64,000 nucleotides of DNA from Macrostomum lignano (lineage: Eukaryota): contig NIVC01002285.1 in NCBI GenBank assembly GCA_002269645.1, forward strand, positions 122,835-186,834, in the 5' to 3' direction. Below are positions 22,707 to 62,987 of the stretch, in pieces (position 1 is the first letter of the stretch; every line of letters starts with the position of its first letter). The notes under the pieces are model-generated. The model ran no database searches, was not told the origin of the DNA, and worked only from the letters and a program-made list of their open reading frames with translations. The translations under genes and the position numbers were made by a program.

Positions 22707-22707
22707 A

Positions 22708-39639: not shown

Positions 39640-40234
39640 TGTGTTTTTCTTGTTCCTTGTCTCTTCCAGAGACGGCTGCAACATGTAGTGGGGGCTCGAT
39701 TAGTCACTCCACCAGGCGGGCAGCTGGATCTGTTAAAGTCTAAGCTAATTTCTGCCTAGCGGGAGTCAAAACTCTATCGTGGGCGCCCTTCGATGCTTAA
39801 AACCCGCTTTTGTGTTTGTTCTGTTAAGCTATATCCCAATGGCCGGGAAAGTAAAAATTTTTGGTTCCAATTCTAAAATTCAAGCAGTAAGGTGCCTGTG
39901 CTTCATAAACGAGCTATGCAGCGGTGGATTAGACTATGAGTCTGTGTGTGTGCAGACAAGTACTTATGCAGAAGGCCTAGATTCATCTGTCCGCACTCCC
40001 CTCCTGGAGTCCCTCTTTTCGGATACCACTACACTGAAGTTGGAGAGCGGCTATCGTTTAAGCATGGATAAGGAAAATTTCCCTATAGCAATCTCCTGCA
40101 GGCTTCAGTGCAACCCGAGGCTGTTCCTGAACCTGTTCTTTAGTCGGAAATTTATAGTCTGTGGTCCTCAAAATCTCGAGGAACTGAAGCAAGTGTTGAA
40201 GGTTTTCCAACATTTGCCCCAAGCAGCCGTCTAA
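39640..40234 (+). pseudogene. TATA-binding-protein-like gene, element A (stop and frameshift)
   Basis: KLYRGRPSML, KLYPNG, VQTSTY, ENFPIA, LNLFFSRKFIVCG; homologous to 53453-54025. Confidence 0.7.
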
Positions 40235-40286
40235 TTATTCATTTCAGCAAATTGCCGCCCAACTCCGTGCTCAGACTCGAACTTAC

Positions 40287-40983
40287 GTGACCGAAGGTCT
40301 AATTGGGGCGGGAAAATCTTCCCTTGTCCGCAATCTGGCTCTGATGGCTCGGCTGGAATGTTGGAAAGGAGGGTACGAGTTTGCTCGGGAGCCGGTGGAA
40401 TACTACCGAAAGCACCGTTACACGGAGCAGAATCTGCTGCAGCAGTTTTACGATGGTGACTTGTCCGCTTTTGAATTTCAAGTCCATGTGTCGCACGAGA
40501 TGGTGAGACGCGACATGAAGCTCCGCAAAATCGCTGCAAAAGGCACGCATCGGTTTATTGTGGCAGACCGACACCTGGGCAGCTGCTATGCATTTTTAAC
40601 GCATCTAAAACATCAAGGGCGTTTGAATGGTACCCAGCAAGCAATTCTCGTTAATCAGCTGCAGGTCTTAGAAAAGAAGACAAAGACGGTTACATCTCGA
40701 GAGGATTGCACTCTGGTCTCTGGTGTACCCTGAAATCGACCCGGAGCTGGCACTGCAGCGCATTCGCCAACGAAATCGGCCTGAAGAAGCCAACATCGAC
40801 CTGGCCTATCTTCAAGGGCTGGCTGCGGCGCAGCAAGCCACATTCCCAAGCTACGGGTTTGTGGTTCAACTGAGGGTTACAGAATCATCAACAGTCGAAG
40901 ATCTGAGCCGGCTGGTGCGCGACCTGGTGCAAGGCTCGCGTCAACCGCCTCCTAGTGGCGGTTTTATCGAGGCAGTGATGTGA
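40287..40983 (+). pseudogene. Deoxynucleoside kinase family, element A (one frameshift)
   Basis: EGLIGAGKS P-loop, REPVEYY, FQ, ADRH, PELALQRIRQRNRPEEANIDLAYL. Confidence 0.85.
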
Positions 40984-41199
40984 AATCAAAGCTTAATTCT
41001 TGAATATTTAATTTGTGCATACTGAGTCGACTACTCTGAAAGAAAAAAAAAATTTGCAACCATCATTTCATTATTGTCAAATAATGAAACCAAATCGGCG
41101 TTCAAGTTAATTTTTTACTACTTGTATTAGTAGAAAGAAAGTTTCCTGCTCCTAATTAACTCATGTAATACTTAAATCACAGCTCGTCGGCGGCAAATG

Positions 41200-41859
41200 C
41201 CACGGATTCAGTGCCGCGTTTGCGGCAAATGATTCGGAACCCAGGCAGCACTGCATGCGCATTCGCACGGTGCTTGTTTTCACCCTCTGGAATCGTTGAT
41301 TAGCAATCCGCCTAGTGGCTGGAATGCGGTTCTGGAAGAATCAGCGCTGCATGGAAGAGCTAATTTTCTAAAATTTATTCCCACTGCTGACGGCACTGGC
41401 AACGACAACAACAACGGGATCTCTGAGGTGCTCGCTTCACTTCAACAGCCGATCTACAGACTTTTCAGTATGTTACTGCAGCCAGATCTACTAATGCGAA
41501 CTTGCATTCATTTAAAGTGTAAGCTAAGTCGTCTGATGCCAGCAGCTGCTGCTGCTAGTGATGCCGACCAGCCAACGCTGCAACAACAGGAGATTTCAGT
41601 TTATTTCAATACCAATATCTTCACGATAACAATTGACGAAGAGTCTGCTGCTGCTGCTGGAGCTCTTCTTTCGCCCGACGCCTTTAACCAGTGGTTTTTG
41701 CGCGCTGTTGGCGATCTTGTCACTCGACTGGAAAATTTTCAAAAACAAGGCAGCAATTGGCATCTCGAGGCGGTGGAACAGGTTGATTTTTTACTCGCCC
41801 TGTACAGACGCTCTCGTGCGAGAGCGTCTGTACAGCGCGGTGCAGGAGCTGGAGCAACC

Positions 41860-41897
<38 letters not shown>

Positions 41898-44800
41898 CAC
41901 ACCTTTCAAAATTCCGCTGTCACTGGCGAAAAAAGCTGGATCTGTGCTACTTCTAAAACCCAACAATGCGAACCAGCAGGATTGTTTTTGCTATGCTGTA
42001 GTAGCAAGCGTCTTTCAAAAAGATGTGGCCCGACCGGCTAGACGAGCCAGCTACAAGCGATGGTTGCAAGTTTTCGATTTCGGTCGAAATCCATCCGGTC
42101 CTAAACGGCACAATGCACACAGCTACAAAAAGTTTCTGAGAAAAAATCCCACTCTTGGCTTACGCATGTTTGTCTGGGATCACGAAAGCAAATCTGCTAG
42201 CTTGTTTTTTTCGAAAAAAACACCAGAAGCTATCTACACGGCAAATTGCCTGTTCATACCACCTTATTCAAGCTTCAAGTTTGGGCACTATGTGCCTATC
42301 AAGAATTTGCAAAGCCTGCTAAGTTCTAACACGCGGCGACGGCGTTTCTGTCCCGACTGTTTAGCGCCATTTAATCACACTGTGTCCTGGGACTTCATCT
42401 TGAACGAGCACTGCTGTACTGGCACGTCCGTGCCTCCAACCGAGCCTGCAGCTCAACCAAGGGGCTGTGTATGGCAGTCTGAACCGGAGGGTCAGTTTCG
42501 CGAGATCCGCTTTGTTCCGCGTGAAGAAATGCCAGCTAAAGAGGAGGCTTTTGTGCGCTTCACAGTCGATGAGACTCGACTACCTGCTTTATTTGTTATT
42601 TATTCAGATCTAGAAACGATTGCAATGAGTCCGGAACAGGCGGCTGCAGCCGGTCACCCGGTTCCCAAACTTGGCAGCGGTATTGTGCGAGTACTCGTAC
42701 CACTCTGCCTGGGCTACAGATTGGTTACCCAGCCGCAAGACTTCAAAAGCAAGCTGCCTTCCTATTGCGCTGGAAAGCCGTGTGAGGTGCTGTATTCTAG
42801 TCAGAGCTCGGCCGGGCTCAATTGCGTGAGCCAGTTTCTTCTAAAATTACGCCAACTAGCTTCGGAAATCATGCACTATGGACGGCTAGAACTCCACAAA
42901 CCACTGATGAGAAAGTTTCTTCCCGCACGAAAACTAGTGCTGCAGGCAGCGACAAATTGCCAGTTGTGTCTGCGGGAGTTCGGACCCGGAGAAGAAGAAG
43001 ATCAAGCTGTTTTGGATCACTGCCATTTGACAGGCCGTCCTCGTGCTGTTTTATGTTGCTCTTGCAATCAAAAACTAAGTTTACAACGCCGAAAAATAAC
43101 AGTTTTTATGCACAACCTGAAAAATTTCGATTCGAAATTTATCATTCGAGAGATCTACGAGACTTTCTCAGGCACCAGCAAGGACATTCGGTTGAATGTC
43201 TTGCCGGAAAACCGTGAGCGGCTTAAAACATTTTCCATTAAGTTTCGACTGCAGTGAGGCAGCACCAGCACGGATGGGATTGACGAGACGTGGTTTGAAA
43301 TTTGTTTCAAAGACTCATTTGCCTATTTACCGTCAAGCCTGGCGAGCCTGGCAGGGCGCCTTCAACCAGATCAACTCATCTGTACAAGGGAGCTTCTAAA
43401 GTTCTATCCCGGTCCGAGCGAAACGACTCTGTTGCAAAAAGGAGTCTATCCGTACTCATTTGCGGATTCTTTTGAGAAAATAGATTCAGTTACGCGTCTC
43501 CCACCCAGAGAGGCGTTTTTTGACCACCTGAGGGAGGAGCCCTGCTCGCTCGAGGACTACGCCCGGGCCGAAAAAAGCTGGCAAGAATTCGGTTGCCGCA
43601 GCCTGCGGGACTACACAACAGCATACCTGTCTTTGGACGTGCTGCTTCTGGCGGATGTGTTCGAGGCTTTCCGTAAAACCGGCCTGGAGGAATACAGCAT
43701 TGACCCGGCCCACTATTTGGGTGCGCCAATGTACAGCCTCGCCAGCTGCCTAAACTCTTCAGCCTATTTAGTTAGTCACTGATGCGGACATGTACCGCGA
43801 CTTTTCGTGGCGGCTTCAGTTTTGGTACACGGCACCTGACCACTGGCTCGTAGAACCTGCTGCCAGCTTGACGAGAAAGAACCGGAGTTTGCAGTTGCGG
43901 AAAAACGCTCCGGCAAACACTTTTCTTGTTTATCTGGATGCCAATTCACTCTATTCAACATGCATGGTTCATCCCATGCCTTGTGCTGATTTCAAGTGGA
44001 TGACTTTGCAAGAAATCCGGTCCGTTCCGTGCGACAATGGACTGTCCGCCGATGAACTCGAGGATCCGTCAGTGAGGAGCAAGCTGCTGGACTGGATTTG
44101 TAATTTCTGTTCGGCAGACCGGGGCGCCCTGTTCACGGTGGATCTCTACTATCCAAATTTTCTGCACGACTCCACTGCTGATTTGCCCTTGGCTTTAGGT
44201 CACGAAACTGTGACTGAGAGCTGGCTGACAAGAACTCAACGACAAGACTGGCTACTACTACAGCGGCAGATGATTCCGAATCGCAGCGCTAACGCAACTT
44301 CATACGAGGAGGTCAGCCTATTCAAAAGCCCTACGAAAAAGCTAATCGCTTCGCTGGTGCACAAAAAAGACTATGTGGTGCACTACAGAGCTCTGCGCCT
44401 CTATCTGGAGTTGGGACTGCGCGTGCCACGAATTCGCCGAGTGCTTGTCTTCACCGAACGCTCGATCTTGCGCTCTTACATCGAGCGCAACATTGAGAGG
44501 CGGAAAGCGGCCACGGGGGATTTCGAAAAAGATTTTTTTAAGTTACTCAACAATTCGCTCTTCGGGAAGTTTCTTCAGCGCGTGCGTGACCGGATGAACT
44601 TTCGAATGTGCTCCGACCCAGAGAAGCTGGAGACGCTGGTCAGTATGGAACGCTTCCAAGATGTTGTAATCTACTCTGAAAATCTCTTGGGAGTTAATCT
44701 CGCTCCAAGAAAAGTTACGCTAAACAAGCCGATCATCATTGGCGCCGCAATTCTCGATATTGCTAAGACAATTGTCTATGACTTTTATTACAGTCACGTT

Positions 44801-45337
44801 CAGGCGCACAGCTCTCTGGAGTGCGCGCGCGTTCTCGCTGGCGATACCGACAGTCTGATGATGGCCCTGGTGATGCGCAAGTCGGGAGAAACCCCGTACG
44901 ACACTATTTTTAAGGACTTTGTGCAGCAAGGCCTTTTGGACACCAGCAACTACCCGAAGAACCATCCTCTCTACACTGACAGACACAAGGGTCGGCTGAT
45001 GGCGTGGAAGGATGAATTCGGCGGGCAGCTGGCTATCGAGCTGGCGTTTCTGCGGCCCAAGAACTACTCTTTTTTGAGGGCCAATGAAGTTGTGCAACAA
45101 GTGTCGCGCTGCAAGGGGGTGACGAAGACGGTTGCCCGACAGATTAAGCATACTGAGTATGTAAGAACTGTTAACGAGAGAAGCCTCTACTACGTTCAGC
45201 AGCGACGCTTTAGTTCGCAAAAGCAAGTTGTCTTTTTGCTCGAGCATCGCAAGCTAGCCCTAAGCTCTTTCGACACGAAACGTGCTTGGCTGGGCGCGCT
45301 CGCCTCTCTACCCTACAGCCACTGGCGGTTGAACTAA
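41200..45337 (+). pseudogene. Protein-primed DNA polymerase B (EndoVII type), element A, several frameshifts
   Basis: DCFCYA/GHY (OTU-like), YSDLET, DHCHLTGRPRAVLCCSCN, HNLKNFD, YLDANSLY, KLLNNSLFGK, AGDTDSL, RPKNY. Confidence 0.92.
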
Positions 45338-45615
45338 TCTATCGCTTTGACTTTTTTAAACCAAGTGTTGATGAGTGTGCGCTATGCCGTGATTTGACTA
45401 AATATAGCGACAGCGAAAACTTGGTCTACTACTAATCTTGCTAAACTGTTAGAGGCCTAGTCAATTTGTTTTTCTGCGGCATATACGAGGAGGGAAGTAG
45501 CTTGGGTGGCTTTAGCATTATAAGTAAAGCGAAAACGATATTTTAAAACTCTACAAGAAACTAACAAACACCTCACCCCAATCTCTGTTCCAGCTCTATC
45601 TGCACACTGCGCAAC

Positions 45616-46257
45616 ATGGACTCGACCGGCTGCTCTTCAGTGGACGAGGAGCTGCGAATCTTCTTGGAGGAAGCCGGAGCAAAGATTCCGCAACGGGCGA
45701 CCGAGCGATCGGTTGGCTACGATCTAGCCAGCTTGGAGAAAAAAACCATAACTGCACAAAGCTGGTGTGTACTCTATACCGGAATAAGTATCGATCTGCA
45801 AGACGGCACGTATGGTCGAATTGCTTCTCGCTCAGGCCTGGCTGCGCGCTACGGAATCGTTGCCGGCGGCGGAGTTATCGACCCAGACTACATCGGACAG
45901 CTGCAAGTGATTCTTTTCAATCATTCGACTTGTGACTTCAAGGTCGAGCCTGGCGACCGCATCGCTCAATTGGTTTTGGAGCGTGTCGCTACACCATCTG
46001 TTGTTGTTAATCGTGCAGGCAGGCCTGGGAAAAAGGAAGGAGAAGAAGTGAAGACCAGGGCGCACGACGAGGGACTAGTCAACGACGATGACAAGACCAT
46101 CCCTGTCCTCGTCGATGAAGAAGGGAACGAAGGACCTATCGAGCCGCCGAAGCGCATTCGCGGAACGGGCGGATTGGGCAGCACCGGAATTGGATCGCTT
46201 TTGCGCGGCGTAATGGGACCTGATCATGATGACACTAACAAAGCTAAACGTAGCTAG
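45616..46257 (+). CDS. dut: dUTPase, element A
   Basis: GYDL, GRIASRSG, GVIDPDYIG, GDRIAQL, RGTGGLGSTG. Confidence 0.93.
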   Translation: MDSTGCSSVDEELRIFLEEAGAKIPQRATERSVGYDLASLEKKTITAQSWCVLYTGISIDLQDGTYGRIASRSGLAARYGIVAGGGVIDPDYIGQLQVILFNHSTCDFKVEPGDRIAQLVLERVATPSVVVNRAGRPGKKEGEEVKTRAHDEGLVNDDDKTIPVLVDEEGNEGPIEPPKRIRGTGGLGSTGIGSLLRGVMGPDHDDTNKAKRS

Positions 46258-46400
46258 CACCGCAAACTCAAACTCTAATACTTTCTTGTTTTAAACAACT
46301 GCAAAATATACACTACCACCAATCAACGTAATAGTCAACAGATTGTATAAGCAAAACAAATTTCCCTACGAGCTATGACTTCAAAATATTACTAGCAGAA

Positions 46401-46837
46401 ATGGTAAGAGACCAGAGCAGGCACTTTAAAAAGAGCGCAAGAAAAACTAAAAAAAATCTCGAACTACTACTACTAGTAGTCGTAGAGCAAAACGGAATCA
46501 GCGACTACAGAGAGGAAGTGGTATTGTAAATTGGGTTATTAACCATTTGCCGTTTGAACTACATCTCCCGGGCTACCAATTCTGTGGACCGGGTACTAGG
46601 TTGAAAGAACGATTGGCGAAAGGCCAGACCGGGAAAAATAGGCTAAATAGGCTGTGTATGCTGCACGATAAGGCCTACGAGAAGAACTCTGAAACGAAAG
46701 ACCGTCTCGAGGCGGACCGCTTGCTGGAACAGGGCGCGCGAGAAATAGCCAACGATCCAAGCAGTGGTTTGGGTGAGAAACTAGCCGCCAAATTTGTAGC
46801 AAAGGTTATGCAAGTAAAGCAACAAGCGAGCGCCTGA
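46401..46837 (+). pseudogene. Basic N-terminus plus parvovirus VP1-type phospholipase A2 (PLA2X), element A
   Basis: LPGYQFCGPGT...LCMLHDKAY; 1-nt frameshift in an A-run near 46450; no intron. Confidence 0.85.
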
Positions 46838-46842
46838 GCTAC

Positions 46843-47539
46843 ATGGAGACAAAGCCGCCTATCTACGATTTGCGGCTCGCGCCTGATTCAACAATCATCG
46901 TGGCGGGGCCTTCGATATCTGGGAAGACAGAATGGGTTTTGCGTCTGAAAGAGTAGCCATGTTTAAGAAACCACCACAACGGCTAGTCTGGTGTCACGGG
47001 ACCGATCTTCATGACCAGGAACGCGGGAAAATTCGGGCTTGTTGGGACAACTCCGAAGGAATACATTTTATTCGGGGTTTTACGGGTGCATTGTTGGGGA
47101 GTTTACGATCGGGAGATCTTTTGGTTGTAGACGATCTGCAAAGTGAGATTGCTAAATCCGCCGACTTCACAGCTGTCTTCACCAAACACGCCCACCATTT
47201 CCCATTAAACTGCATATACCTATGCCAGAATCTGTTCAGCCGTTCAGACGCGGGGGCACGAACAAGAAGCTTATCTACAAGCTACATCTGTTTAACCCGC
47301 TCGGTACGAGATCGAACCGCAGTTTTGAATCTTGGGAAACAGATGTATCCAAAAAAAGTAACTATCTCGTCCAAGTCTACGAAGAAGCAACCGATGGAAA
47401 ACCGTACTCATATCTACTTATCGACTTGCGTCAGGATACGCCAGATTTCTTGCGACTTCGAACAGGCGTGTTTGCGGGAGAGCTGATGATAGCCTATGGT
47501 AAGCCTGGCAACAGAGAGCTAAAGGCGCCTGGGTTATAA
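46843..47539 (+). pseudogene. FtsK/A32-like packaging ATPase, element A (frameshifts)
   Basis: Walker A AGPSISGKT, Walker B LLVVDDL, YLCQNLF, PYSYLLIDL. Confidence 0.9.
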
Positions 47540-47588
47540 GCAAGCCATGTTATTTCAAGACTGAACCATCGCCACCAAGGAAACAAAC

Positions 47589-48121
47589 ATGAGCTTCTAC
47601 GTTTTTCTTCCCTCAAACGACAAAAGCTATCCATCCAACACTCCAAATGAGTTTCGTGTGCGATTGAAAAATTCTTTGAACCTAATCGGACGTTATGGGA
47701 CCGCGAACGCGTACGAGGTCGCTTTAGTCGAGCTTTTGTGCAGAGGTGCTATAAAAAACATTGGTTATGCTGCCTCCGATAGGTCACAGTTATTCGGTTG
47801 ATATTAGTCCACATCTTTCAGTGAAGCAGGCTGCTTTGACAAAATTTTGGCAGGGAGGCGACCTGGAAGTCTATCTGCTTTGTCGCCCGGAAGAGCGGCA
47901 GTACCTGTGGTATCTCGGAAACGGTGGCGCGAGTCAATTAGCGATCCGTTTACCTTCACATTTCATGCGTGTCTATGGCTTCGATCAGTGGAAAATAGTG
48001 CGCGGGAAGGATAGTGATTTCCATAGCATTGAATCTCTTACTCGGAGTCCACTCATTGGTGAGGAAGGAAGCTTTAAAAGTTATTACGCGAGAGCGAAAA
48101 GCTCAACTGAATACATAACCG
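47589..48121 (+). pseudogene. Minor capsid (penton) protein, element A, 3'-truncated
   Basis: MSFYVFLPSN...FRVRL...YEVALVEL; central part matches 61995-62825; runs into the inverted arm at 48122. Confidence 0.8.
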
Positions 48122-49842
48122 TTCTAAATCTTGTAAATATCAATGGTCTACTAATGGAAAGGGGGATGATAAATGCAGTCAAGACTGAAACAGTTGGTGC
48201 CAAGGCTGAAAATGCCACTAGGGGAACTGTGTCAGCTGTTGTATATACAAAATTTAGTGGGATTAAAACGAAGAAGGCAGTTGTAACAAGGGATAAAGAA
48301 GATGGGGGTGATCGCTCATTCCTACAGAATCAGTCAACCGCACGCTCCGTTCGATATCGGTTGGGTTGCTGGCCGTGATGACCCACTCTGTTGTGAAGAA
48401 TGAAGACGGTAAATATAGCCAATCCTAAACAAAGAACTTCACTTTCGATATAAGCTTAGACAGCAAGGGAGCTGTATCCGAGAGGATACACTCTAAAAAA
48501 GCGCAATCTCTATTGTATAGCAGTATCAATATAGCTTAACTTCTTAAATTTTGTTTGAGTTGTGAGCGAGAATCTAAATCATTTCGGACGCGCTGCTGAA
48601 GCTGTTAACGACCCTAGACGGGGCCGTTCGCGTTCGCGAAATGGACACCATATAGATACTTTATATTTTAATAGTTCGTCGCAATTTCCGGAGTTTGACG
48701 AGTTTCCGGATGCCGACTACTTAAATGAACTATGCCGGATCCCTGAAGAGGGTAAGTTTGGTACCTGCTTGGTTATGTTTTAATTTATCCTCATTGAAAT
48801 AAACATCTAGTGTTGCGACTTTCCTCCGCAGATGCCATCAGTCCTGAACCGCAGGGTGATCATGGACGCTGGGCACCGTGGACGTGGGTGTCGAGTGCGT
48901 GGACGTGGGCGAGGGCCCTGTGGAATAATATATATGGCGCTGCGGGCGGAGACAGCGATGTTGAATCTAGCCTTCAAAGTGATTCTGGCGAGGATGTTCG
49001 ACCGACCGCTGCGATTCTCGAGTCTTCCGTCCTGGGCGAGGGTGCCGTGGGCGGCGGAAGCGCTGTGCAGTCCGACTTGGTGAGCGAGCCTTCTAGACCA
49101 AGCGAGAGCGTCGCGGGGGGCGGCAGCCATCGTGAGATTGGCTCCGTCGAGGCTCGTGTTTGTCGACAGTCACGGGATGGACCTAGCCGGAGCGAAGGCG
49201 CTATGAGCGGCGACAATCCTCGCTGGTACCCATTTCTTAACCATCCTCACGCATCTCACGTCTACGCCCGACATCGCCCTCTTGATGGGCGCGGGCATGG
49301 ACGGGTGCGTAGTAACGGCGAGAATTGGGTAATCATCGCCGAAGAGCCTTCGCTTTATGGTCCATTGCGCATACTGGTTAGAGAGAATAGGCCTGGCCCG
49401 CCTATTCGACGGGCGACTTCTGACTCGGACTCGGGCCTCTGTGAATTTTAAGCATTGTGTTTACACGCCCGCCTAATAACTAATAACGTTACAGCCGTTA
49501 CAGAGAATGCAAGCCCGTTGCATTGAGCATGTGTGAATGTATGTGAAAATAAATATTAATCGCTTTCAGTGTTACTTCAATGCGATTATAATACCGTGTT
49601 CTTAATTTGTGCAATACTTAAGTTTCTATCCAATGCTTAATACGTATTATGTGGCACGGCAAACTTAGAACAGTGTTTAGATCTTACACTAGAACTAATA
49701 CGGCGAGCTTAAACCTAGATGTAGTAATTTTCTCTACGAGCCTTTGAGTGAATAACAGAGTCTAAAGACCAAGACAGTTTAACGATTAAGATTAACAAGA
49801 TTTCATTTCATACATGGAGTTAGTTGAGAATGAAAAATTATA
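48122..49842 (+). repeat. Right arm of the 1.7-kb inverted duplication
   Basis: Reverse complement of 26444-28168; carries copies of the three small ORFs. Confidence 0.95.
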
Positions 49843-50024
49843 AGTAGTAAGCGTTTTTTACGCCCATAGCTCGTTTTTACATGGCGAAATCAATAGGAAG
49901 TTCCAAGCACTAGTTCAATGGGGATACGTGCATAGCCTGTTTTTGCATAGCAAAACTAATACAAAGTTCTAGGTTATAGACGATGAATTTCCATCCTGCA
50001 CAGGCGCGTTACCAAATCTCGTCC
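49843..50024 (+). repeat. Polinton-type terminal sequence of element B
   Basis: AGTAGTAAGCG start; colinear with 24510-24691. Confidence 0.8.
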
Positions 50025-50249
50025 CCGTCATGTTCTTTCTAGCCACACTCTTTCTTCTACATACGTGGTCGTTCAATGCTACGACCGTCTGTGTCACAGC
50101 CAAATAAAAAAGGCACATACACACGCATCGCTCTATTGCCACAATGATTTTGTGAATCAGTTCGTTTGTAGATGAAAGCTTTTATATTTTTTGTCTAGAT
50201 AAAAAACTATCAGGTCAAGCTTGCATTAAAACAGTCAAACGCTAGCTTT

Positions 50250-50843: not shown

Positions 50844-51170
50844 ACAGATCCAGGTACCACGTCGCGGAACTCCGTCAGATGCAGCTGCTTGTCGAATAGT
50901 CCGCCCACGATGACGTTGTAGACTTTGTCCGTGGCAGTCGCGAAGCGTAGTTCCAATCGTACATTGCCCTCTTTATATACCTGTGCGCCAGCTCCGACAC
51001 CCACCTCACTGCCCAGTCCGAAGGCGTAGATAGTGTAGCCGGCTTTGTACTCTGCAATCGTGAACCCCAAGTCGCGGTTACGCAGATGCAACCCCAGCTG
51101 TTGCAAAAACCACCCGTACTCCAAAACGCAGTCCCCACTATCGCTGTAGTCGGTTTCGAGGGGAGTAGTA
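50834..51170 (-). pseudogene. Major capsid protein, C-terminal remnant
   Basis: EYKAGYTIYAFGL...GNVRLELRFATA...VIVGGLFDKQLHL..FRDV resembles Polinton MCP C-termini; sits directly upstream of adenain; 5' part missing. Confidence 0.7.
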
Positions 51171-51405
51171 GATAAAAATCGGACACGGAGGGTTTTTTTA
51201 AATACGAAAAATGTATGGTTGGTACATGGGCAATATACATGGGAGATAGCCGAAACTTCGGACAAATTTTCAACCCTCTCCCGATAGCAACTGGGGCGCA
51301 ATTTTCCTCTCTTCCACAAAGCGCAGACCTCCAGTTTCTCTTTCCCTCGCCGCCGACGCTAGTTGTTAAATTTCTAAAACAACTGTTCGTAAAGATAAAT
51401 TGCCT

Positions 51406-51746: not shown

Positions 51747-52926
51747 ATGGCGTTTTTCGCTAAAGAAGAAGTCTTAAGCGCACAGCAGTTTGTTTCACCC
51801 GAGACGCGGCCTACAATCCATGTCGAGCCAGCTTCTTCGCCCAAGTTTGCCAACAACTGTCAGTTCCGCGCTCTCTCTTGGACTCCGGTGGGCGACAAGC
51901 ACGAGAAACTACCGATTCTACTGCAGTCTCAACAGCCGATTCTACTCTTTCGCGGTTTGCACCGAACAGACAGCGGTGCGGGCACAGAACACTCGGTCAA
52001 CGAAGGACGAGAAGCTATCGCACTTGGTTTTCAAGCCAAGGGCATTTGCCCTCAGCTGGTTTCAACTTTGAGGTAAATACAATCCGATTCTTTGGTTTGT
52101 GAACCGCATCCCAGGTTAGAAATTAAAGTTTACTGCAATTTTCTTACGTTGCTATCTGTCATATTCTTTCCAGAGCGATCGAGAAGTCGATCGAGAAGGC
52201 ACTTCACCAGCAATCTGACCGAATGGGGCTCATTAGACTCACTAAGAGTCCTGACGCGAGCGGTGCCAACCCAATTACCTGGATCGGCATCAAGCCCAAC
52301 TATCCATGCACAACATTCTCCACCAACGAGGGCAGCCGCACAATCCAAGAGGTTTCGCCCCGAGACTTCAGCGAGCGAAGCGGACTCTACCAGATCACGG
52401 TGCAAATCACTTCGCTCTACCTTCCGAAGGGGCGCCAGCCTGGCGACTTGCCGCCTGCATCCGATCTCTGGTGTGGCTGTCTGATGGAAACACTACCGGC
52501 CTGATAGGGAACCTGCAGGGACCTCTGTCCGAGTATCGGATTGTGCATGAACATAGCAACGAGGAGAAAATTTCAAGTTTGCCTACTCCAAGTCTTCTCA
52601 CTGCCACCGGCAAGAATCGAAGTGAGAGCAGCACCACGCCGAAGAAGAAGAGGAGAACCTCATCACCACCGCCGCCACCAAGCAAGAATTCGAAACGTCC
52701 AAGGCCTGCCGCGAGCGCTCCTAAGAACCAGCCTGCTTGCAAAGGTGGACCAGCAAGCGATCCCGACTGGGCTGAAGTACCGGCAGTCAAGAAGCTCGTA
52801 AGTTCGCCTACGGTTCAGCCGGGAAAGCGAGTCGCCTCTAAGGATCTCTCGTACGCCAAGCAGCTAGCTGGAGCTGAAGCCTCGAGCAACAGATCCTCCG
52901 ATTCGGATTGCAGTCTGTTCGCTTAA
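51747..52926 (+). CDS. Gene X of element B, two exons, possible ssDNA-binding protein; one frameshift near 52470
   Basis: TATATAAG at 51685; intron 52073-52173 joins frames (TLR|AIEK); C-terminal PKKKRR and an acidic/Ser tail. Function is inferred. Confidence 0.55.
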
Positions 52927-53452
52927 GCTCCAACTGGTGTCATTGCTGCGAGGGACTTTTTCAGCATGTCTGACGTCTCGCACTATCATAAACTTTAACT
53001 ATTTCTGGCAAATTTTTAGTAGCAAGGACGAGCACCTGAATATTCGTAAACATTTAAATAGATCGGCTCGCCTTGGATTCAACTTCCTCACATGTTTTAA
53101 AGCATATAGCTCGGGTTTTCTAGCCTATCCTTTTAAACACAAATTGTTATTTTCATTAGATGCTCTACGTCGTTTACATCGCTTTTCTTCTCGTCAATCT
53201 GCTGCTTGGCTTTTAGACTGCAAGGCTGGTTTACTCGCCTTAGTGCTTATCTTTAGCAATTCGCCTGCCTACCTACTGCTATCCGCGAGACATTTAGCCT
53301 GACTGCAATAGCGCTTTTGCTAACTACCCGACTTAATATTATTATAATAAACTGATGACCAAGTTCTTTGTCTTACCACGACTTATTCAGACTTATTTCT
53401 GGTTTGAAATTTTCAGAGAATTGTTCAGAGTGTCGGGAGCGCACAACTGGAT

Positions 53453-54025
53453 TTGAGCGGTTCCGATGGACTAGATTTATTTCAGCTTCAGCTAAAACTG
53501 CTAAAAAGCGGATTCAATTGCAAACTCTATTTTGGACGACCCTCTATGCTGAGAGTTGCTACGAGTGCTGGCTATACTATGCAAATCTATCCTGGTGGAA
53601 AAATTACAATTTTTCGATGTGCATCAAATCTCAAATTAATATCCACACTCCTGGCAATTCACAATTCTGTTTTTAAGCTGGATTTTAATTCAATACGTAT
53701 TCAAACCTCAACATATGTTGGTGAATATGAATTTTATAGCGCAACAGACAGATTTTTTATGCTAAAATTAAGAATTGGATGTTTCATTGGTTTCACTGTG
53801 AGCTACGATGCAGAAACTTTTCCTCAAGCCGTGCGATTGCGCTGCAGCTGGAATAAACGTTTGTTTGCAAATTTGTTTTGTTCAAAAAAGCTGGTCATAA
53901 TGGGCCCAGCAAATGCCCAAGAACTCTCCTCTATTTTATCATGTATTGAAACATACTTAAAGCTTTCGATTCCTAATTCAACGCATAATATCTTGCAGTC
54001 AATCGATCCTATATCCAACAACTAG
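53453..54025 (+). CDS. TATA-binding-protein-like protein, element B
   Basis: Two TBP-like repeats: LDLFQL...GRPSML...QIYPGGKITIF, and IRIQT...SYDAETFPQAV...ANLFCSKKLVIMG (cf. SYEPELFPGLI...LIFVSGKVVLTG). Start uncertain; ATG at ~53356 is out of frame. Confidence 0.75.
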   Translation: MSGSDGLDLFQLQLKLLKSGFNCKLYFGRPSMLRVATSAGYTMQIYPGGKITIFRCASNLKLISTLLAIHNSVFKLDFNSIRIQTSTYVGEYEFYSATDRFFMLKLRIGCFIGFTVSYDAETFPQAVRLRCSWNKRLFANLFCSKKLVIMGPANAQELSSILSCIETYLKLSIPNSTHNILQSIDPISNN

Positions 54026-54034
54026 TAATCTGAA

Positions 54035-54714
54035 ATGGCAAATATCGTTTTTGCACCGAGCGTCTTCATCCTTGAAGGACTGTTGGGAGCGGGCAAATCC
54101 ACCGTACTGCATAATTTGGCACTACGATCAAGACTAGACAACTGGAGGAAGCGTGCTCATTTTCTGCCGGTGCAAATTTTTGCCGCAGCGAGGGTCCTTT
54201 TTGCGGCGCCCTGGAGAAGTTTTATTCTGGTGAACTGTCAGCATTTGCTTTTCAAACGTTGGTGTACCAAGAGCTGATGGGACGCGACATGGCCGCAGTT
54301 CAATTTGCGACAAACGAGGTGAAGGAGGGCCGCCAGCCGATTGATCTGATAGTGATGGACCGACACCTACGATCCGGAATTGCCTTTTCAAATCTGTTGT
54401 ACAAACAGGATCGGTTGACTAACTTTGAACTGAATCTGATGATTCGGTTGTATGAAATGTTTACCAACTGCTTTCAATCTGATGCCACACTAATCTATCT
54501 GGACATCACACCCGAGCTTGCACTGGAGCGCATTCAACAGCGAAACCGAGGTGGGGAGCAGCACATTACACTGAGTTATCTTGAACAACTACGGGAGGAG
54601 CTGCATGCACAGTTTGCTCTTTTCAAAACTGTGCACAAGATCCGAGTGCTGCCAGAGACTACTCTTGAGGATGTTGTGGACACAGTTTGCAAGATTATTA
54701 ATCCTTCTGGCTGA
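54035..54714 (+). pseudogene. Deoxynucleoside kinase family, element B (one frameshift near 54160)
   Basis: EGLLGAGKST, AFQ, VMDRH, IYLDITPELALERIQQRNRGGEQHITLSYL. Confidence 0.85.
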
Positions 54715-54949: not shown

Positions 54950-55718
54950 ATGATAAAAGCACGTTTTTTAAAGAAAAAAAAATTGTTATTCCAGCCAAGA
55001 GCTCGCTGCCTGGTTTGTCGAAAGACCTTCCGCAATGTGGCTGCGCTGCATGCTCACTCGCATGGAGAATGCTTTGCGCCAGATCGACTGTTGGAGGGGC
55101 CATTCGAGGAGCTTCAGGCGCACCCACCAGACGGTTGGTCTGTTCACCTGGAAGAAAGTGCGCATCAGGGGCGAGCCAACTTTCTGCAGTTTGTTCCTAA
55201 TTCCGCTGAATCTCCATCGCAAACATCCGCCACCACCGACGACCTTCTACCTGCCGACAAGCTGAACCAGCTGCGCGCCCCAATCTATTGGCTTTTCAAT
55301 ATGACTTTACAAAAAGGACTGATGTTGAGAACATGTCTGCATGTCAAGGTGAAGCTGTTTCGGATGCTGGCGGATTTGCGGCAACACCCCGATCTCTCAA
55401 CAGGCGCTTTAAATTCACCAGCAACTGAAATAATCTCTGCATATTTCAACAGTCACATGGTTACAATTTCACTGGATAAAGAGGGCACCGGTACTGGCGA
55501 ACTGTCTGAGGAGAGTTTCAACGACTGGTTTATGCGTGCAATCACCGAAGTGACAAGCAAAATTGACAGCTTCCAGAAACGTGGCAGTGGTTGGAAGTAT
55601 GACAGCATTGAACAGCTTGACCTGATGCTATGCCCCTATAGGAAGTCTCGTTCTCGGCCAAGCTACAACCCGGGCAGTAGGAATTCCACAGCGGCAGAGC
55701 AACAGCTGGGCGGTGGTA

Positions 55719-55753
<35 letters not shown>

Positions 55754-58700
55754 GCCAGAACATTTAAAGTCCCGTTGTCGGTTGGATGCAAGAGAGGAGC
55801 CGTAATATTTTTGAAGCCAAACAATAATCGGCAGCCTAACTGCTTCAAGTATGCAATCGTAGCAAGCATCTTTTATGCCCAAGTGAAGCGTCCTCATTTG
55901 AAGAGCAGCTATACAGAACATTTGCGAGAATTGGATTTTGGAACTAAATTACAAGTCGGATCAGCGAGACATGCCAAATGCTCATATATTAAATTTTTGA
56001 ACAAAAATCCAGGGTTAAGTTTGCGTGTATTCGTTTGGGATTACGAAGCAAAGACTGCCGTGCATTACTTTTCGCGCCACTGTTCCCCGGAGACAGCCCG
56101 CTTCATGGCAAACTGTTTGTTCATCCCACCATATGGCAAATTCAAGCTGGGCCACTACATGCCTGTTCGTAATTTGAACTCACTTCTAAGCTGCCGAGGC
56201 AAACGACGGCGTGTCTGCCCAACTTGCCTGGCTCCGTTTTCGGAAAAAATATCATGGGACTTCATTCTGAACGAGCACCAATGCATCGGAGGGTGCGAGA
56301 GCCAGTCCTCGCTCCGCTGGATGTCCGAGCCGCTGCCACAAATACGGGAGGTGCGCAGGCCGCCAATTGAGAAGATGCCTCTGCCGGAGAATGCTAGTCT
56401 TGAGTTTACCGAACATGCTGCAAGGCTGCCGGCGCTGTACGTAGTTTATGCCGACATGGAATGCCTATGTGCACCGCCGGACGCCAGCGCTCCACATGTG
56501 GGAGCCTCTCAAAAGATTCGCGAGATCCACAAACCGCTTTGCATCGGTTATCGGGTGGTGGCCTGTCCCGGAGTTGAAAGCCGGCTGCCTTCACTATATG
56601 GCGAAAGGTCCGCCTGTTCGGTTATCTATTCGCGGCCCAACGGTGGAGATGATTGCATTGGGCTGTTTTTGATCAAGCTCCGCCAGCTAGCAAGCGAGAT
56701 CTACCGACACGCCAAGGATGAAACATATGTTCCTTTGCTTAAAAAATATCTTCATCTGACGGACCGTGTCGAGAAGCGGCGCCACAAGCATTGTCAGCTA
56801 TGTAATCGCGTTTTTGAGCTTGATGAACGCCAAGTCCTGGATCACGATCATCTTACTGGCCTGCCTAGGGGAGTTTTGTGTGTCAGCTGCAATCGCAAAT
56901 TGAGCTTGAATCGCCACCGGCTGTTGGTCTATTTTCACAACCTGTCGGCATATGATGGCAAGTTTATTGTTCGCCAAGTTTACGAAACCTTTTCCGGTGA
57001 AGAAGTTAAACTTTATGTTTTGCCTGAAAATCGCGAGCGATTCAAAACGTTCTCTATCAAGTTCAAGCTGCCTGCTGCTGATGGGCAGCACCACGTTTGG
57101 TTTGAAATCTGCTTCAAGGACACTTTTGCGTATTTACCAACTAGCCTAGCAAGTCTAGCTGAACGCCTGCTCCCTTCTCAGCTGGTGCACACAAGCAAAC
57201 TATTGGAGCAATACCCGAGACTACGACCGGAGACGTTGCAGCAGAAGGGAGTTTTTCCCTATTCGTTCCTTGATCGAATGGACAAATTGGACAGCGTAAA
57301 ATCTCTGCCAGCAAAGGAGAGGTTTTTCAATAGACTAACAATGCAGCATTGCTCTGACGCCGACTACGCTCGAGCCAAGGCCAGCTGGGAGGAATTCGGC
57401 TGCCACACTCTGCGTGACTACACTACTGCCTACCTGCGATTGGATGTGCTTTTGCTCTGCGACGTGTTTGAAAATTTCAGAAATAATGCAATCAAAGAGT
57501 ATCAAATTGATCCCGCTCATTTTCTTGGCTCTCCAATGTACAGCCTGGCGGCGTGCTTGCTTCAACTTGCAGAGCCAATTCAACTCTTCACTGATACAGC
57601 CATGTATGCTGAAATTGAGAGCTCTGTGCGCGGCGGTTTCAGCTTTGGGACACGTCACGTAACCACAGCAAATAACTCGTTGGTTTCGCTCATTCGTCAA
57701 GATTTGGACAGGGACGAGGGCAACTTTGCGAGCCTGAGGGCAAATGCACCAGAAAACACCTTTTTGGTTTACTTGGATGCAAACTCGCTCTATTCTAGTT
57801 GCATGGTACAACCTCTACCATACAAGAACTTTCGTTGGCTTTCTGCTCGAGATGTGAATCGCATACCATGCGATAACACCCCCGGCGCAGGCTATTACCT
57901 CGAAAATCCGCAAGTGAAGAGTCAAATGCTAGACTGGCTGACGAAGTTTTGTTCTGAGGAGCGAGGAGCTTATTTCACAGTCGATCTGCATTATCCCGAG
58001 TTTCTACACGATAGCACTGCTGACCTCCCACTGGCGATTGGGCACGAGATTGTGAGAGAAGATCGGCTGACGGATCAAATGCGGCAAGATTGGACAGCAC
58101 TTCAACGACAACTGAACCCCGAGCGATATGCCTCTGCCAGCTGTTACCAAGACGTGAAGGCATTCAAGAGCCCTGCGCGCAAGCTCATCGGTTCTGTCGA
58201 GCACAAGCGCGAATATGTGTTGCACCACCGTGCATTGCGACTTTACCTCGAGTTGGGGATGCGAGTCACAAGGGTCTATCGCGTCATCTGTTTCACCGAG
58301 AAGCCAATATTACGCTCTTACATTGAGCGCAACATTAGCCGACGAATAGAAGCCAAGACGGAATTTGAACGTGATCTGTTCAAGCTACTCAACAATGCTT
58401 TGTTTGGCAAGTTTCTGCAACGTGTTCGTGACCGATTGTGCTTCAAGATGTGCACCGACGCTGCAAAGCTGGAGTCCTATGTCAGCATGGAAAGCTTCCT
58501 AGATGTTATCATTTACAACGAGAATTTGGCGGGAGTTAGTCTATCTCCTCGTCAAGTTTTGCTTAACAAGCCAATTATCATTGGCGCGTCAATTCTGGAC
58601 ATTGCCAAAACTATGGTTTACAATTTTTATTACAACCATGTTCAGGCTCATCATTCGCTTTCATGTGCACGCGTTCTGGCAGGCGACACCGACAGTCTGA

Positions 58701-59230
58701 TGATGGCACTGGTGATGCGCAGACCTGGTGACACGCCCTATAATTCATTGTTCAAGGACCTGATCGCTCAAGGACTACTTGATACCAGCAACTATCCGCC
58801 GGATCATGCCCTTTATTCTACCCAACACAAGGGTCGGCTGCTTGCATGGAAAGACGAATTTGCTGGAGCGGTTCCAATCGAGTTGGTATTTTTACGACCA
58901 AAGAACTACTCTTTTCTCTACGTTACCGATACGATTCGGCAACTCTCTCGATGCAAAGGCGTGAGCAAGCAAGTGGCTCGCACGTTCAAGCACACGGCCT
59001 ACCTCTCGGTCTTGGAGAAGAGAAGAGTGATGTATGCAAGCTTCGCTCGAATTGCTTCTAAGAAGAAAGTTGTTTTTCTCATGGAACAGAAGAAGCTCGC
59101 GCTCGGATTTTTTGATACAAAGCGCGCTTGGACAACCCTCCTTGCTTCTCAACCATTCGGACATTGGCGGCTGCGAGCAGCATGCGAAACGCAGGCAAGA
59201 ATTACTTTCTTGATACTGTTTAGCATCTAG
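54950..59230 (+). CDS. Protein-primed DNA polymerase B (EndoVII type), element B, intact
   Basis: Uninterrupted ORF; N-terminal CLVC...HAH zinc finger, NCFKYA/GHY OTU-like dyad, YADME, DHDHLTG..RG.LC..CN, FHNLSAYD, YLDANSLY, KLLNNALFGK, AGDTDSL, RPKNY. Confidence 0.95.
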
Positions 59231-59657: not shown

Positions 59658-60428
59658 GTGCAATTTCCCAGTCCCGCCACCAACTCCCACTCCGAGAATG
59701 CAAACAAAAAATTTATTTTCAATGTTTCAGCCAGTACAATGCAGCGCCAGCAGCAAGAATCTCTAAATCCAAGTGACACTAGCAGCTGTAAAGACGCAGC
59801 GCCAGTTCCGCTACGCCTAAATCCCGATTGGTGTCAACAATACCTCGCAGGCTCACCACCGATCGAGAAAAATCTAATTGTCCGCCTTCTCAGCAATCAT
59901 GCTGCGGTTCCGGCCAGACAGACAGAGGGCTCTATCGGGTATGATCTGACTGCAGCCGAGACCAAGACCGTCCCTGCGCAGGGACGAGCGATTTTTGATA
60001 TTGGGATTTCAGTCCGAGTACCGGCTGGCACCTATGGAAGAATCGCTGGGCGCTCTGGTCTGTCAGCGTTTCACGGAATCACGGTGGGCGGCGGAGTAAT
60101 TGACCCAGACTACTGCGGACGAATTACGGTGATTCTCTTCAACCACGGCATACGAGACTATCATGTTCGCATCGGCGAAAGGATTGCGCAGCTGGTTCTG
60201 GAGAAGGCGGAAATCGCTCCGGTCAAGGTAGAGAACTACACTATCGCTCGCGGGAAGAAGCGTGAAGCGCTGGACAACCAGCGTCAGTTGTCAGCGTCAG
60301 CATCGTCAGTTGCGGAGACCGCCAAGGTTGATGAAGAAGAGAAGATGAAGAATCTGGCGGACGCAATCGTTCAACAAGAAGCTTGCAAGCAGCGGGGCGA
60401 TTCAGGCTTTGGCAGCACGGGGATGTAA
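59658..60428 (+). CDS. dut: dUTPase, element B (start uncertain)
   Basis: GYDL, GRIAGRSG, GVIDPDYCG, GERIAQL, RGDSGFGSTG. Confidence 0.93.
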   Translation: MQFPSPATNSHSENANKKFIFNVSASTMQRQQQESLNPSDTSSCKDAAPVPLRLNPDWCQQYLAGSPPIEKNLIVRLLSNHAAVPARQTEGSIGYDLTAAETKTVPAQGRAIFDIGISVRVPAGTYGRIAGRSGLSAFHGITVGGGVIDPDYCGRITVILFNHGIRDYHVRIGERIAQLVLEKAEIAPVKVENYTIARGKKREALDNQRQLSASASSVAETAKVDEEEKMKNLADAIVQQEACKQRGDSGFGSTGM

Positions 60429-60494
60429 AGATTGCAGGTTTAAATTGCGCGCAAGAGCGGTAGTATCTGGAAATTACTGCAGTTCATTCTTTTT

Positions 60495-60708: not shown

Positions 60709-60760
60709 AAACTAAATTATTTGCTATTGGTTTTCAAGTCTTTACTATTTAAGCAACAAA

Positions 60761-61254
60761 ATGTACGCATCAAAACGCAGAAAAGGTGTCTGCAAGCAAA
60801 AGAGGAAATCTGTCCCGAATCGGAAATCGCGCTCTAGCAAACGTGTTCAGAGAGGATCTGGGATTGTAAACTGGTTAATCAATCACCTACCATTTGAGGT
60901 CCACCTCCCTGGTTACAATTTTTGTGGACCGTAAGTGAGCCAAACTTTTTCATGATTTAGTTTGACACTGTTCTAACTAGGAAGTATTAAATTCGCTCTT
61001 AATTAAGGGGCACGCGGTTGCGAAAACGGCTTGCGGAAGGACAGCGAGGGAAAAACCGGTTGGATGATCTTTGCCTACTACATGATGTTGCATACGAAAA
61101 GAGCTCGGACACAAACTCTCGTCTGGAAGCTGATCGGTTGTTAGAAGCCGGAGCTAGAGAGATTATAAGCGATCCGAATACTGGGTGGGGAGAACGCCTT
61201 GCTTCAAAATTCGTGGCTAAGGTGATGCACGCTAAGCAGCGATTGGCAGCCTGA
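60761..61254 (+). CDS. Basic N-terminus plus parvovirus-type PLA2 (PLA2X), element B, two exons
   Basis: Exon 60761-60930, intron 60931-61007 (GTAAGT...CTAAC...AAG), exon 61008-61254; splices to LPGYNFCGP|GTRL...LHDVAY. Confidence 0.88.
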
Positions 61255-61260
61255 ACACAA

Positions 61261-61967
61261 ATGGAAACTTTCAATCTGCAGTTGGCACACGATTCCTCAA
61301 TCATCTTGGCCGGACCATCAAACTCTGGCAAAACTGAATGGGCGCTGCGTTTGCTGCGCGAACGAAATTTGTTATTTAAGCAAGCGCCAACGCGTCTCGT
61401 GTGGTGTCATGGCACGGACCTGAGTCCTGGTGAACAGCACCGCATTCGTTCAAGCTGGGAGGAGGGCGGGAGCGGGCAGCATAATTTGATTCGAGGATTT
61501 CCGCTCGAGCTTATCTCTCAACTTCGCCCACACGATTTGCTGGTTGTCGATGATCTCCAGAGTGAAATGGCCAAGTCCCCCGAATTTACAGCAATTTTTA
61601 CAAAAATGCCCACCACACACCACTAACTTGTCTCTATTTATGTCAGAATCTCTTTCATCGTTCTGATGCTGAAGCGCGCTCGCGAAGCCTCTCTGCTAGC
61701 TACATCTGCCTGACCCGAAATATTCGCGATCGAACGGTTGTTCAAAGCCTAGGGAAGCAAATGTTTCCAAAGAGGAGCAACTTTCTAGTTCGTGTCTATG
61801 AAAACGCAACTGACAATAGGCCCTATTCATACCTGTTTATTGATCTGCGACAAGAAACTCCCGACTTTTTAAGGCTTCGTACTGGTATTTTCCCGGGTGA
61901 CAAACAGCTTGCGTACACCTCTGGTAAAAGCAACTCTGTTTCACTTGATTTTATAAGCAATCCATAG
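61261..61967 (+). pseudogene. FtsK/A32-like packaging ATPase, element B (1-nt deletion near 61607)
   Basis: AGPSNSGKT, LLVVDDL, YLCQNLF, PYSYLFIDL. Confidence 0.9.
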
Positions 61968-62000
61968 ATTGCACTTTGCTCCTTTGTAGAAATTTTGAAA

Positions 62001-62987
62001 ATGAGTTTTTATGTGTTTTTGCCTTCGAATGACAAGAGTTATGCAGATAATTCACCCAGCGAGTTTCGAGTCCGGCTAAAGGATCCACTGAATGTTGGAA
62101 CGCGCTATGAAGTAGCACTGGTTGAGCTAATCTGCGGAGGGTTTCCTGCTTCGGCTGCAAAGGACTCTTCGTTAGATAAAAAGGAAATTGTCTACTATCA
62201 AAGAGACGTGCAAACGTATTTTTCTTCAACAGCACCTCGATTTGTGAAGTTGTGGTCCCAAGCAAACTTGGAGGCATATCTTTTGTGGAGGCAAGCGGAG
62301 GCGGGCTCGGGAGCAAAAATCACATATCAGTGGTTCCTGCGAAACGGTGGTAGCCGATCGGTTCATGTGGAAATTCCAATGACGTTTCTCAGTACATTTG
62401 CCCTAGACGAGTGGGTTGTGGTTCGAGCGGGGATAGGCAATGAAGAAGGTGAATGGAGTGAGGCTTCTCTACGGACTTTGGAAGAGGTTTCAGCGAAGAT
62501 GGATAGATTGAACGATAAGTATACTATGATTTTTAATTTTGTTCTGGACCCATATCATGCTGTGAAATTTTTGGGCGATGGAGAACGCATGAAATCTCTA
62601 CAAAGTGGTTCAGTGGACGACGCTCTGAAAAAAAATGTTTGGAAGCTTGTGCACCCGTGGACATTTACCATACAATATTTGCTCCGTGAGCCGTCCGGTG
62701 CTGGGACGACAATAGCAAGCAGTATATGTATTGCTACACTGACATCATCGACTATCAGCCCGTTGGAAGCACATCTGTTCCACTGTTGCGCGTCGTGGAT
62801 TTGCAGCGGAAGGGACACGAAGTAACGCATGAACATAGTTCCTTGACAAATCCTTACTATGTTGGAGTGAATCGTCAGGCATCAGCGAGATTCAATTCGA
62901 CTGACTGATCAGCGTGGCAAAGGAATACAATTTCAACCGGGCTCGCATACTGTGGCGGTGCTCCATTTTCGTCCTAGAATTGACTAG
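62001..62987 (+). pseudogene. Minor capsid (penton) protein, element B (frameshifts in the 3' third)
   Basis: MSFYVFLPSN...YEVALVEL; YTDIIDYQPVG...PLLRVV; LTDQRG...VLHFRP. Confidence 0.85.

Follow-up and report, generated by a model that had tools for sequence, protein, structure and literature searches.

What would a virus-like mobile element do with a TATA-binding protein (TBP) of its own? The question is raised by the window analysed here, the last 64 kb of contig C2285 from the flatworm Macrostomum lignano (genome of 764 Mb), in which the original prediction had picked out two syntenic runs of genes and assigned them to an old Maverick lineage. In both copies, the genes do follow one order: X, TBP-like, deoxynucleoside kinase (dNK), protein-primed DNA polymerase (pPolB), dUTPase, phospholipase A2 (PLA2), packaging ATPase, and penton. 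The copies are nested, however, with copy B lying inside the major capsid protein (MCP) gene of an inverted A-family end; moreover, copy A is broken and the dNK of copy B is split. As detailed below, the element is a genuine Polinton, distinguished by its accessory module, and what gives the finding its value is that encoded TBPs are paired with private promoter boxes. Our reading, for which we would put the probability at roughly 0.6, is that the element TBP likely serves as a late-promoter factor reading TATAAG[CT] before the genes of the capsid module.

A search of the genome with the TBP exon gave 73 matches, and 27 stretches were mapped. At least six subfamilies (A, B, D, E, F, and G) share a single gene order with all genes on one strand, this being X, TBP, dNK, pPolB, dUTPase, PLA2, ATPase, penton, pX, PZ, integrase, PW, MCP, and protease. 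For promoter motif discovery, we compared the 150 nt upstream of eight genes and then scanned whole elements, with the expectation taken from a dinucleotide shuffle over the six subfamilies. The upstream comparison showed TTATAAG before penton and pX in all six subfamilies and a canonical TATA before X. Over whole elements, TATAAG[CT][AT] occurs 38 times in the sense and once in the antisense direction, against 5.4 expected. By gene, the box precedes penton, pX, and MCP in 6/6 subfamilies, integrase and PW in 5/6, PLA2 in 4/6, and dUTPase in 2/6, and it is never found before X, TBP, dNK, or pPolB; one further box lies inside pX/PZ, and the PLA2 sites of B are doubled by a tandem repeat. Here, the integrase boxes and most of the MCP boxes fall outside the 150-nt discovery windows. 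More conspicuously, the MCP box sits inside PW at the same two codons in all six subfamilies, though synonymous sites are saturated between most of them. The semi-autonomous gene programme suggested by the original prediction is thus supported, with these conserved non-canonical boxes as new evidence.

That a TBP might be particular to this lineage, as the original prediction had it, did not hold, as TBPs are also encoded by a sister clade from metagenomes and by another Polinton lineage of the same genome, and one is labelled in the Fig. 5 legend of PMC8502044. An MCP alignment scan for metagenomic Polintons yielded 80 loci, seven of which carry a TBP in a different gene order, and the six that could be placed in the MCP tree all fall in the flatworm sister clade (support 96, FastTree). 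This metagenomic clade has a box of its own, YAYGCAAA, at equivalent positions (27 versus 1 over seven loci, 4.4 expected). In these loci (L077, L079, L081, L083-L085, and L087), the TBP gene lies opposite the protease and two penton-like genes stand in tandem. As for the M. lignano genome, a Pfam search returned 150 rows, comprising 12 for host TBP and the TBP-related factor and 138 weaker ones; all six of the weaker loci that were opened belong to another, distant Polinton lineage, whose TBP starts at an ATG of its own (C1113, C100, C130, C878, C2466, and C136, with a PC4 gene in the one copy scanned), and the 138 weaker rows suggest that this lineage is present in many copies. Its box, YTTAAGA, again takes equivalent positions (28 versus 2 in three copies, 8.4 expected). 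By comparison, a canonical TATAWAW precedes MCP in 32 of 41 loci without a detected TBP and in 1 of 13 from TBP-bearing groups (background 5-7%). Gene-start finding in this comparison caught three of the five flatworm MCP genes supplied, and therefore it is the six-subfamily box count that stands for the flatworm lineage.

The TBP-like protein itself was examined at the level of profile, model, and residue. On their own, the two TBP reading frames of the window have no Pfam match; as a family, 13 of 14 aligned members match PF00352, 35 of the 36 profile matches in the PDB are TBP entries (best E 1.2e-9), and TBPs are the top Foldseek matches (E 6e-8) of an AlphaFold model with a pLDDT of 82. 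Profile and model thus agree on the two-repeat saddle fold of the TBP family, and the identities that the original prediction gave to TBP, dNK, and dUTPase are confirmed between Pfam, the family profile, the PDB, and Foldseek. TBPs of the family have four intercalating phenylalanines, and here the second-repeat pair is invariant and the first-repeat pair is changed to Pro and Tyr, for which reason the protein is judged from its sequence to be TBP-like, not a canonical TBP. Going by structures of TBP on DNA, it is the 3' half of the box that the first repeat touches, and since this is the half that differs, the changed pair would fit a variant box. Among 1.84 billion protein representatives, four score above 190 bits and the next scores 61, while the R-P-x-M signature of the first repeat recurs in 28 of the other 146 matches listed. 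Neither metagenome nor viral contigs yielded loci when searched with the flatworm TBP alignment, and viral contigs again yielded none with the MCP alignment or the second TBP alignment.

How this protein is expressed may hinge on gene X, which has no Pfam, PHROG, or PDB profile match. In the contigs of all four public runs considered (from four studies), a 101-nt GT-AG intron of X is skipped; these contigs are guessed to be RNA, and for this reason depth was not used to rank genes. The TBP exon has no usable ATG in any of the six subfamilies and begins at an in-phase acceptor. Likewise in 6/6, gene X bears a GT[AG]AG donor at a homologous P-x-x-K-x-L|VS motif in its otherwise unalignable tail, and this donor agrees in phase with the acceptor of TBP. 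Because of this conserved donor, two products are predicted, namely X alone, with an acidic tail, or an X-TBP fusion. As to what X is, its exon 2 scores 0.90-0.94 in an atlas comparison with clusters from nucleocytoplasmic large DNA viruses (NCLDVs) in which 10-29% of members are DUF5871/DUF2738, and its low-confidence model (pLDDT 52) gives weak matches (best Foldseek E 0.06, best VIA Z 2.8); as a weak lead, X may be a single-stranded DNA (ssDNA)-binding protein.

A rival view of expression, compatible with the late-promoter reading, is that the TBP exon, and pPolB in four subfamilies, would take its start codon from a host AUG-ending leader by trans-splicing and not in cis to X. For the TBP start, we had initially favoured this spliced-leader origin and demoted it after the conserved in-phase cis donor was found; we now consider it possible yet doubtful. 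Such a leader has been published for M. lignano (PMC8629364), and the genome holds 43 exact copies of it. In A and G (2/6), pPolB opens with a genomic ATG; B, D, E, and F (4/6) have a TTCCAG acceptor at that codon, and in B, D, and E the nearest 700 nt contain no GT[AG]AG donor. The TBP acceptor lies near the start of free-standing homologues. Against trans-splicing, apart from the cis donor, no leader-like loose end is listed at either acceptor in the four contig sets, and B has an in-frame ATG 15 codons upstream of its pPolB acceptor. As far as sequence goes, the pPolB acceptor suits an AUG-ending leader of the kind described in PMC12582326 or the X donor.

Several points weigh against a late-promoter role for the element TBP. 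The motifs were recognised post hoc, once the sequences had been inspected, and about three TBP-bearing lineages are set against mostly one TBP-less clade; the loci scored as having no TBP are often partial contigs. Of the 13 loci assigned to the sister clade, only 7 show a TBP, and D and E do not count as independent for the boxes, because their right module is shared. In the second flatworm lineage, the box also precedes the TBP gene itself. Structurally, the match of the model to TBP is at a TM of only about 0.5 (rmsd about 6 Å), and one of the four intercalating Phe positions is a Pro, while ORF24 of KSHV, the herpesvirus associated with Kaposi's sarcoma, requires all four (PMC12529657). 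Lastly, the X-TBP joint is seen in none of the four runs whose contigs all showed the first X intron, though in these contig sets a missing joint says nothing about absence.

Some of these points would suit a second view, in which the boxes are real promoters read by the host TBP, its TBP-related factor, or another element protein, and the element TBP is a decoy or modulator that would tie up TFIIB, NC2, Mot1, or TAFs, or repress host or early genes. The loss of one intercalating Phe speaks for this, as does the host having both its own TBP and a divergent TBP-related factor; also, judged by their titles, structures exist of cellular TBP on single-base TATA variants. Nevertheless, each TBP lineage has its own box and the loci without a detected TBP mostly keep a canonical TATA, and because a decoy would not predict lineage-specific boxes, we disfavour this view and hold it to be unlikely. 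Less probable again is that TBP acts mainly in replication, as part of an X-TBP fusion that would join ssDNA binding to DNA bending at the termini, with the boxes serving, for instance, in 3' end formation. Here, the in-phase X donor conserved in all six subfamilies, the resemblance of X exon 2 to the NCLDV clusters, and the position of several boxes at the end of the upstream gene can be cited in favour. Conversely, the TBPs of the metagenomic clade and of the second lineage stand alone, each starting from its own ATG; the box of MCP falls within PW and differs from AATAAA; and the fold evidence for X is weak.

As to the origin of the element TBPs, trees (with 26 of the 146 outside TBP hits dropped as too short) give three long-stemmed Polinton TBP groups, at 2.2-2.8 changes per site, with no supported join. 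The stem of the flatworm clade is 2.7 changes per site as against 0.05 for host TBP, and element and host TBP have no BLASTP hit at E 0.01. In an approximately unbiased (AU) test, grouping of the element TBPs with host TBP was not rejected (p 0.057), but such a grouping, going by the stem lengths, cannot be recent. Hence, of the recent host capture contemplated in the original prediction, the recency is excluded by the trees and the host grouping is not. That TBP, dNK, and dUTPase are merely passenger cargo of recent capture and no role is very improbable, for while the AU result and a dNK lost or broken in two subfamilies would accord with it, the long stem, the low ratios of nonsynonymous to synonymous change (dN/dS, 0.10-0.15), and the modest identities of dNK to host kinase exons (23-31%, over longer alignments) and of dUTPase to the host-type gene (40-50%) largely refute both "recent" and "neutral"; the source may be an ancient eukaryotic one.

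With the element TBP taken as a late-promoter factor, the following course can be proposed. Host TBP and Pol II would start the left, early unit at its canonical TATA box, yielding X, TBP (in an X-TBP fusion made by alternative splicing), dNK, and pPolB. The element TBP would then recruit Pol II at the variant boxes, so that the virion and integration module is expressed, and dUTPase and dNK would supply clean nucleotides for protein-primed replication, with dNK optional. On this scheme, the element TBP would prefer TATAAGC over TATAAAAG, and each lineage's TBP would prefer its own box among TATAAGCA, TAYGCAAA, CTTAAGAA, and TATAAAAG. The fullest version, in which several Polinton lineages have exchanged the canonical TATA boxes of their virion genes for private ones, each read by its own TBP, converging on the herpesvirus arrangement, along with an X-spliced TBP and a leader-started pPolB, is decidedly more tentative.

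Comparison with known systems brings out what is shared and what is not. Like other Polintons, Mavericks, and adintoviruses (Polintoviricetes), the elements encode pPolB, an RVE integrase with chromodomain, ATPase, adenain-like protease, MCP, penton, PW, PZ, pX, and PLA2, and they have AGTAGT termini, terminal inverted repeats (TIRs), a 6-bp target duplication, and a length of 17-19 kb (PMC8097293, PMC8502044). Unlike them, the flatworm lineage combines TBP, dNK, and dUTPase, keeps every gene on the same strand, has spliceosomal introns (intact vertebrate Polintons being without any according to PMC8097293), and bears non-canonical boxes before the capsid module; its PLA2 and pX are also separate genes, unlike PLA2X. 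The PF03175 match of pPolB (E 2.5e-25) and the presence of PLA2 point to the Alpha adintovirus class. As in the pPolB2-type Polintons of PMC10748475, an HNH/EndoVII domain lies within pPolB, and while that source gives the insert as a shared trait of nematode and oomycete elements, here it occurs in the flatworm lineage and the metagenomic locus L087. For the MELD elements of Starrett et al. (PMC8502044), TBP appears in the Fig. 5 legend and dUTPase in the Fig. 6 legend and supplement genome maps; the available passages give no lineage, promoter motif, function, or dNK.

Among viral TBPs, the nearest parallel would be KSHV ORF24, a viral TBP of the beta- and gammaherpesvirus kind that reads TATTWAA late promoters (PMC12529657). 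Herpesviruses are an unrelated virus class, but if our reading holds, both have a virus-encoded TBP fold and a non-canonical TATA-like box before virion genes, and such boxes are indeed found here. The flatworm protein, however, is a Pfam-recognisable two-repeat TBP of 190 aa, unlike the large multidomain mimic ORF24 with its five partner activators, and none of the latter type was found in the flatworm elements. Divergent viral TBP folds from NCLDVs (for example, the asfarvirus B263R homologue and the Mimiviridae TBP) are also among the Foldseek hits, though at only 6-16% identity. NCLDVs encode their own RNA polymerase, whereas the flatworm Polintons encode none. On the literature side, the accessible parts of PMC11161782, PMC10120064, PMC11131425, 10.64898/2026.06.19.733378, PMC8097293, and PMC10748475 make no mention of "TATA", and the coral paper among them reports a VLTF3-like factor in some polintoviruses. 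In the open PMC and bioRxiv literature (Repbase and subscription papers being outside this scope), we found no prior description of the box-TBP correlation or of the splicing. What is new here is the TBP-box pairing; the TBP gene itself, having been labelled once in a figure legend, is not wholly new, and bioRxiv supplements or Repbase annotations could already record TBP in such elements.

Turning to the remainder of the gene set, Pfam confirms dNK, DNA_pol_B_2, dUTPase, and Phospholip_A2_4. The integrase of a full copy on C4619 has rve and Chromo domains with D-D-E motifs (NCBIfam giving one sub-threshold integrase match). Below the Pfam cut-off, the packaging ATPase matches Pox_A32 (E 0.003, with Walker A/B) and the protease Peptidase_C5 (E 0.037, with His and Cys motifs), and both have homologues in related Polinton loci. 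The putative jelly-roll capsid proteins, for which there was no Pfam or PDB sequence match, owe their assignment to homology (31-35% identity with proteins of fish and echinoderms) and to their position in related loci. That this is an old Polinton lineage under selection, as the original prediction claimed, was borne out: amino-acid identity between A and B is 38% for TBP, 57% for dUTPase, and 69% for MCP with synonymous sites saturated, and in the closest pair, D and E, dN/dS is 0.15 for TBP, 0.10 for dNK, 0.11 for dUTPase, and 0.11 for X exon 1, values indicative of purifying selection on the subfamily genes. D (C889) and E (C2529) have nearly identical MCPs (dS 0.07), whereas the dS of their left modules is 1.2-2.8, and this disparity points to a recombinational swap between replication and capsid modules.

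TBP is retained in 6/6 subfamilies and dNK in 5/6; G is the one without it, and in F it shares a single frame with TBP. In B, dNK is in two frames in all six assembly copies that cover it, and since two of the four public-run contig sets differ from the assembly there, the break is polymorphic. dNK is thus dispensable, and the adaptation to non-dividing cells put forward in the original prediction does not follow, the missing dNK of G and the broken one of B counting against it. Among related sequences, a many-copy derivative of the G type (C753, C1135, and about 20 other contigs) has most of pPolB deleted with TBP and dUTPase kept, and is probably non-autonomous. Short derivatives on C48, C102, and C322 fuse the start of pPolB to the end of MCP. 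A multi-copy intronless dUTPase on C157 and C2132 is 41-54% identical to the Polinton dUTPases, with no adjoining Polinton core genes in the stretches fetched.

Copy B runs from its AGTAGT start at 51164 to the contig end at 64000, all on the forward strand, and is continued on C1704, which overlaps it at 99.5% over 11.7 kb and bears the integrase, PW, MCP, protease, right TIR, and the same 6-bp flank. The full B copy on C4619 measures 17,458 bp with 191-bp TIRs, and has the integrase, PW, MCP, and protease 3' of the genes seen in the window. Extension of the contig, as the original prediction had proposed, thereby recovered the integrase, MCP, and right TIR. Twelve exact terminal matches place subfamily B at at least five insertion sites, four of them with matched 6-bp duplications at both ends, and three other complete elements likewise have (AGT)2-ended TIRs and a 6-bp target duplication. 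Because four other copies differ from C4619 by just 0-7 substitutions per aligned segment (segments of up to 16 kb), subfamily B has moved recently. The window copy differs from C4619 by 36 gap openings and 7 mismatches, and where indels are listed close to the end of the contig, the contigs of public runs disagree with the window; with so many gaps, so few mismatches, and this disagreement, the frameshifts there are probably assembly errors.

In order along copy B, the target-site duplication (51158-51163, GAGGGG, with its partner on C1704) is followed by the left TIR of 191 bp (51164-51354), then by a canonical TATA box at 51685 and gene X (to 52926), with exon 1 at 51747-52072, the 101-nt intron, exon 2 from 52174, and the internal donor at 52798. 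The TBP-like exon (53417-54025) begins without a start codon at an in-phase TTTTCAG acceptor, and dNK (54035-54714) comes next. The open pPolB of 1426 aa (54950-59230, with an in-phase acceptor before 54995) comprises a zinc finger, a Cys/His protease-like region, the HNH/EndoVII insert, and exonuclease and palm motifs. Beyond it are dUTPase (59739-60428), the parvovirus-type PLA2 (60761-61254, with boxes at 60590 and 60701 and a predicted 77-nt GT-AG intron at 60931-61007), and the ATPase, penton, pX, and start of PZ (61261-64000, boxes at 61952 and 62997).

Copy A has fuller counterparts on C1680, C209, and C3758, to which it is 93-97% identical, and it is broken by stops, frameshifts, retroelement insertions, and the inversion of its right end. 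Its left TIR (24510-24691, forward strand as with the genes that follow) starts with AGTAGT and is 93-95% identical to the termini of C1680 and C209. A canonical TATA box at 28335 precedes exon 1 of gene X (from 28388, the feature ending at 28600), which is interrupted by insertions spanning 28602-38968, consisting of a long terminal repeat (LTR)-like repeat (28602-29632) and a Gypsy-type remnant (about 29775-38968) with protease and integrase domains. The TBP-like exon (39670-40231; acceptor ending at 39669, conserved donor at 39114) has one stop and one frameshift, and of the dNK, pPolB, dUTPase, PLA2, ATPase, and truncated penton genes (40251-48121), most are broken and dUTPase is open; TATAAG[CT] boxes lie at 45519, 46346, and 47535. 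A 1.7-kb inverted duplicate of 26441-28168 follows (48122-49845). We had taken this inverted repeat as a candidate for the TIRs of copy A and rejected it, since it duplicates sequence from the interior of the left end, the TIR proper measuring 184 bp. Next, on the reverse strand, is the inverted A-family right end (49843-51163) with a TIR, the adenain-like protease (50250-50843), and the 3' part of the MCP gene, this being the target of copy B. C3805 has the same rearrangement without copy B. Copies on C272 and C1668 likewise terminate in an inverted, near-perfect duplicate of one element end, 1.6-1.7 kb long; such duplications may reflect template switching in protein-primed replication.

Within the Gypsy-type insertion, 33997-37461 holds long frames with a Thr-rich tandem repeat that are envelope-like by position and make-up, with no Pfam match. 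A family of LTR-like repeats of about 1 kb (19000-22712 and 28602-29632) has used Polintons as insertion sites again and again, both in the window and on C1704, C3805, and C4976. Elsewhere in the window, 2223-17745 holds the remains of an unrelated second Polinton, whose inverted arms lie at 2223-2517 and 17430-17745 and whose pPolB (minus strand, about 3003-7143) is broken; this remnant is cut by a LINE-like element (about 8771-14133) with endonuclease, reverse transcriptase, and RNase H-like frames.

At stake is the way in which Polintons regulate capsid genes, and whether those of animals form virions, none of which had been observed so far according to 10.64898/2026.06.19.733378. If our reading is right, an integrating virus of 17 kb would have a late-transcription switch made of one protein, and in the fullest version a TBP spliced to an ssDNA-binding protein would tie late expression to replicating genomes. 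The three natural TBP/box pairs would provide a ready series for the study of how TBP specificity is rewired. A dedicated late programme under selection argues for a real viral cycle, and with a recently mobile family in a laboratory-tractable flatworm, the question of such a cycle becomes testable.

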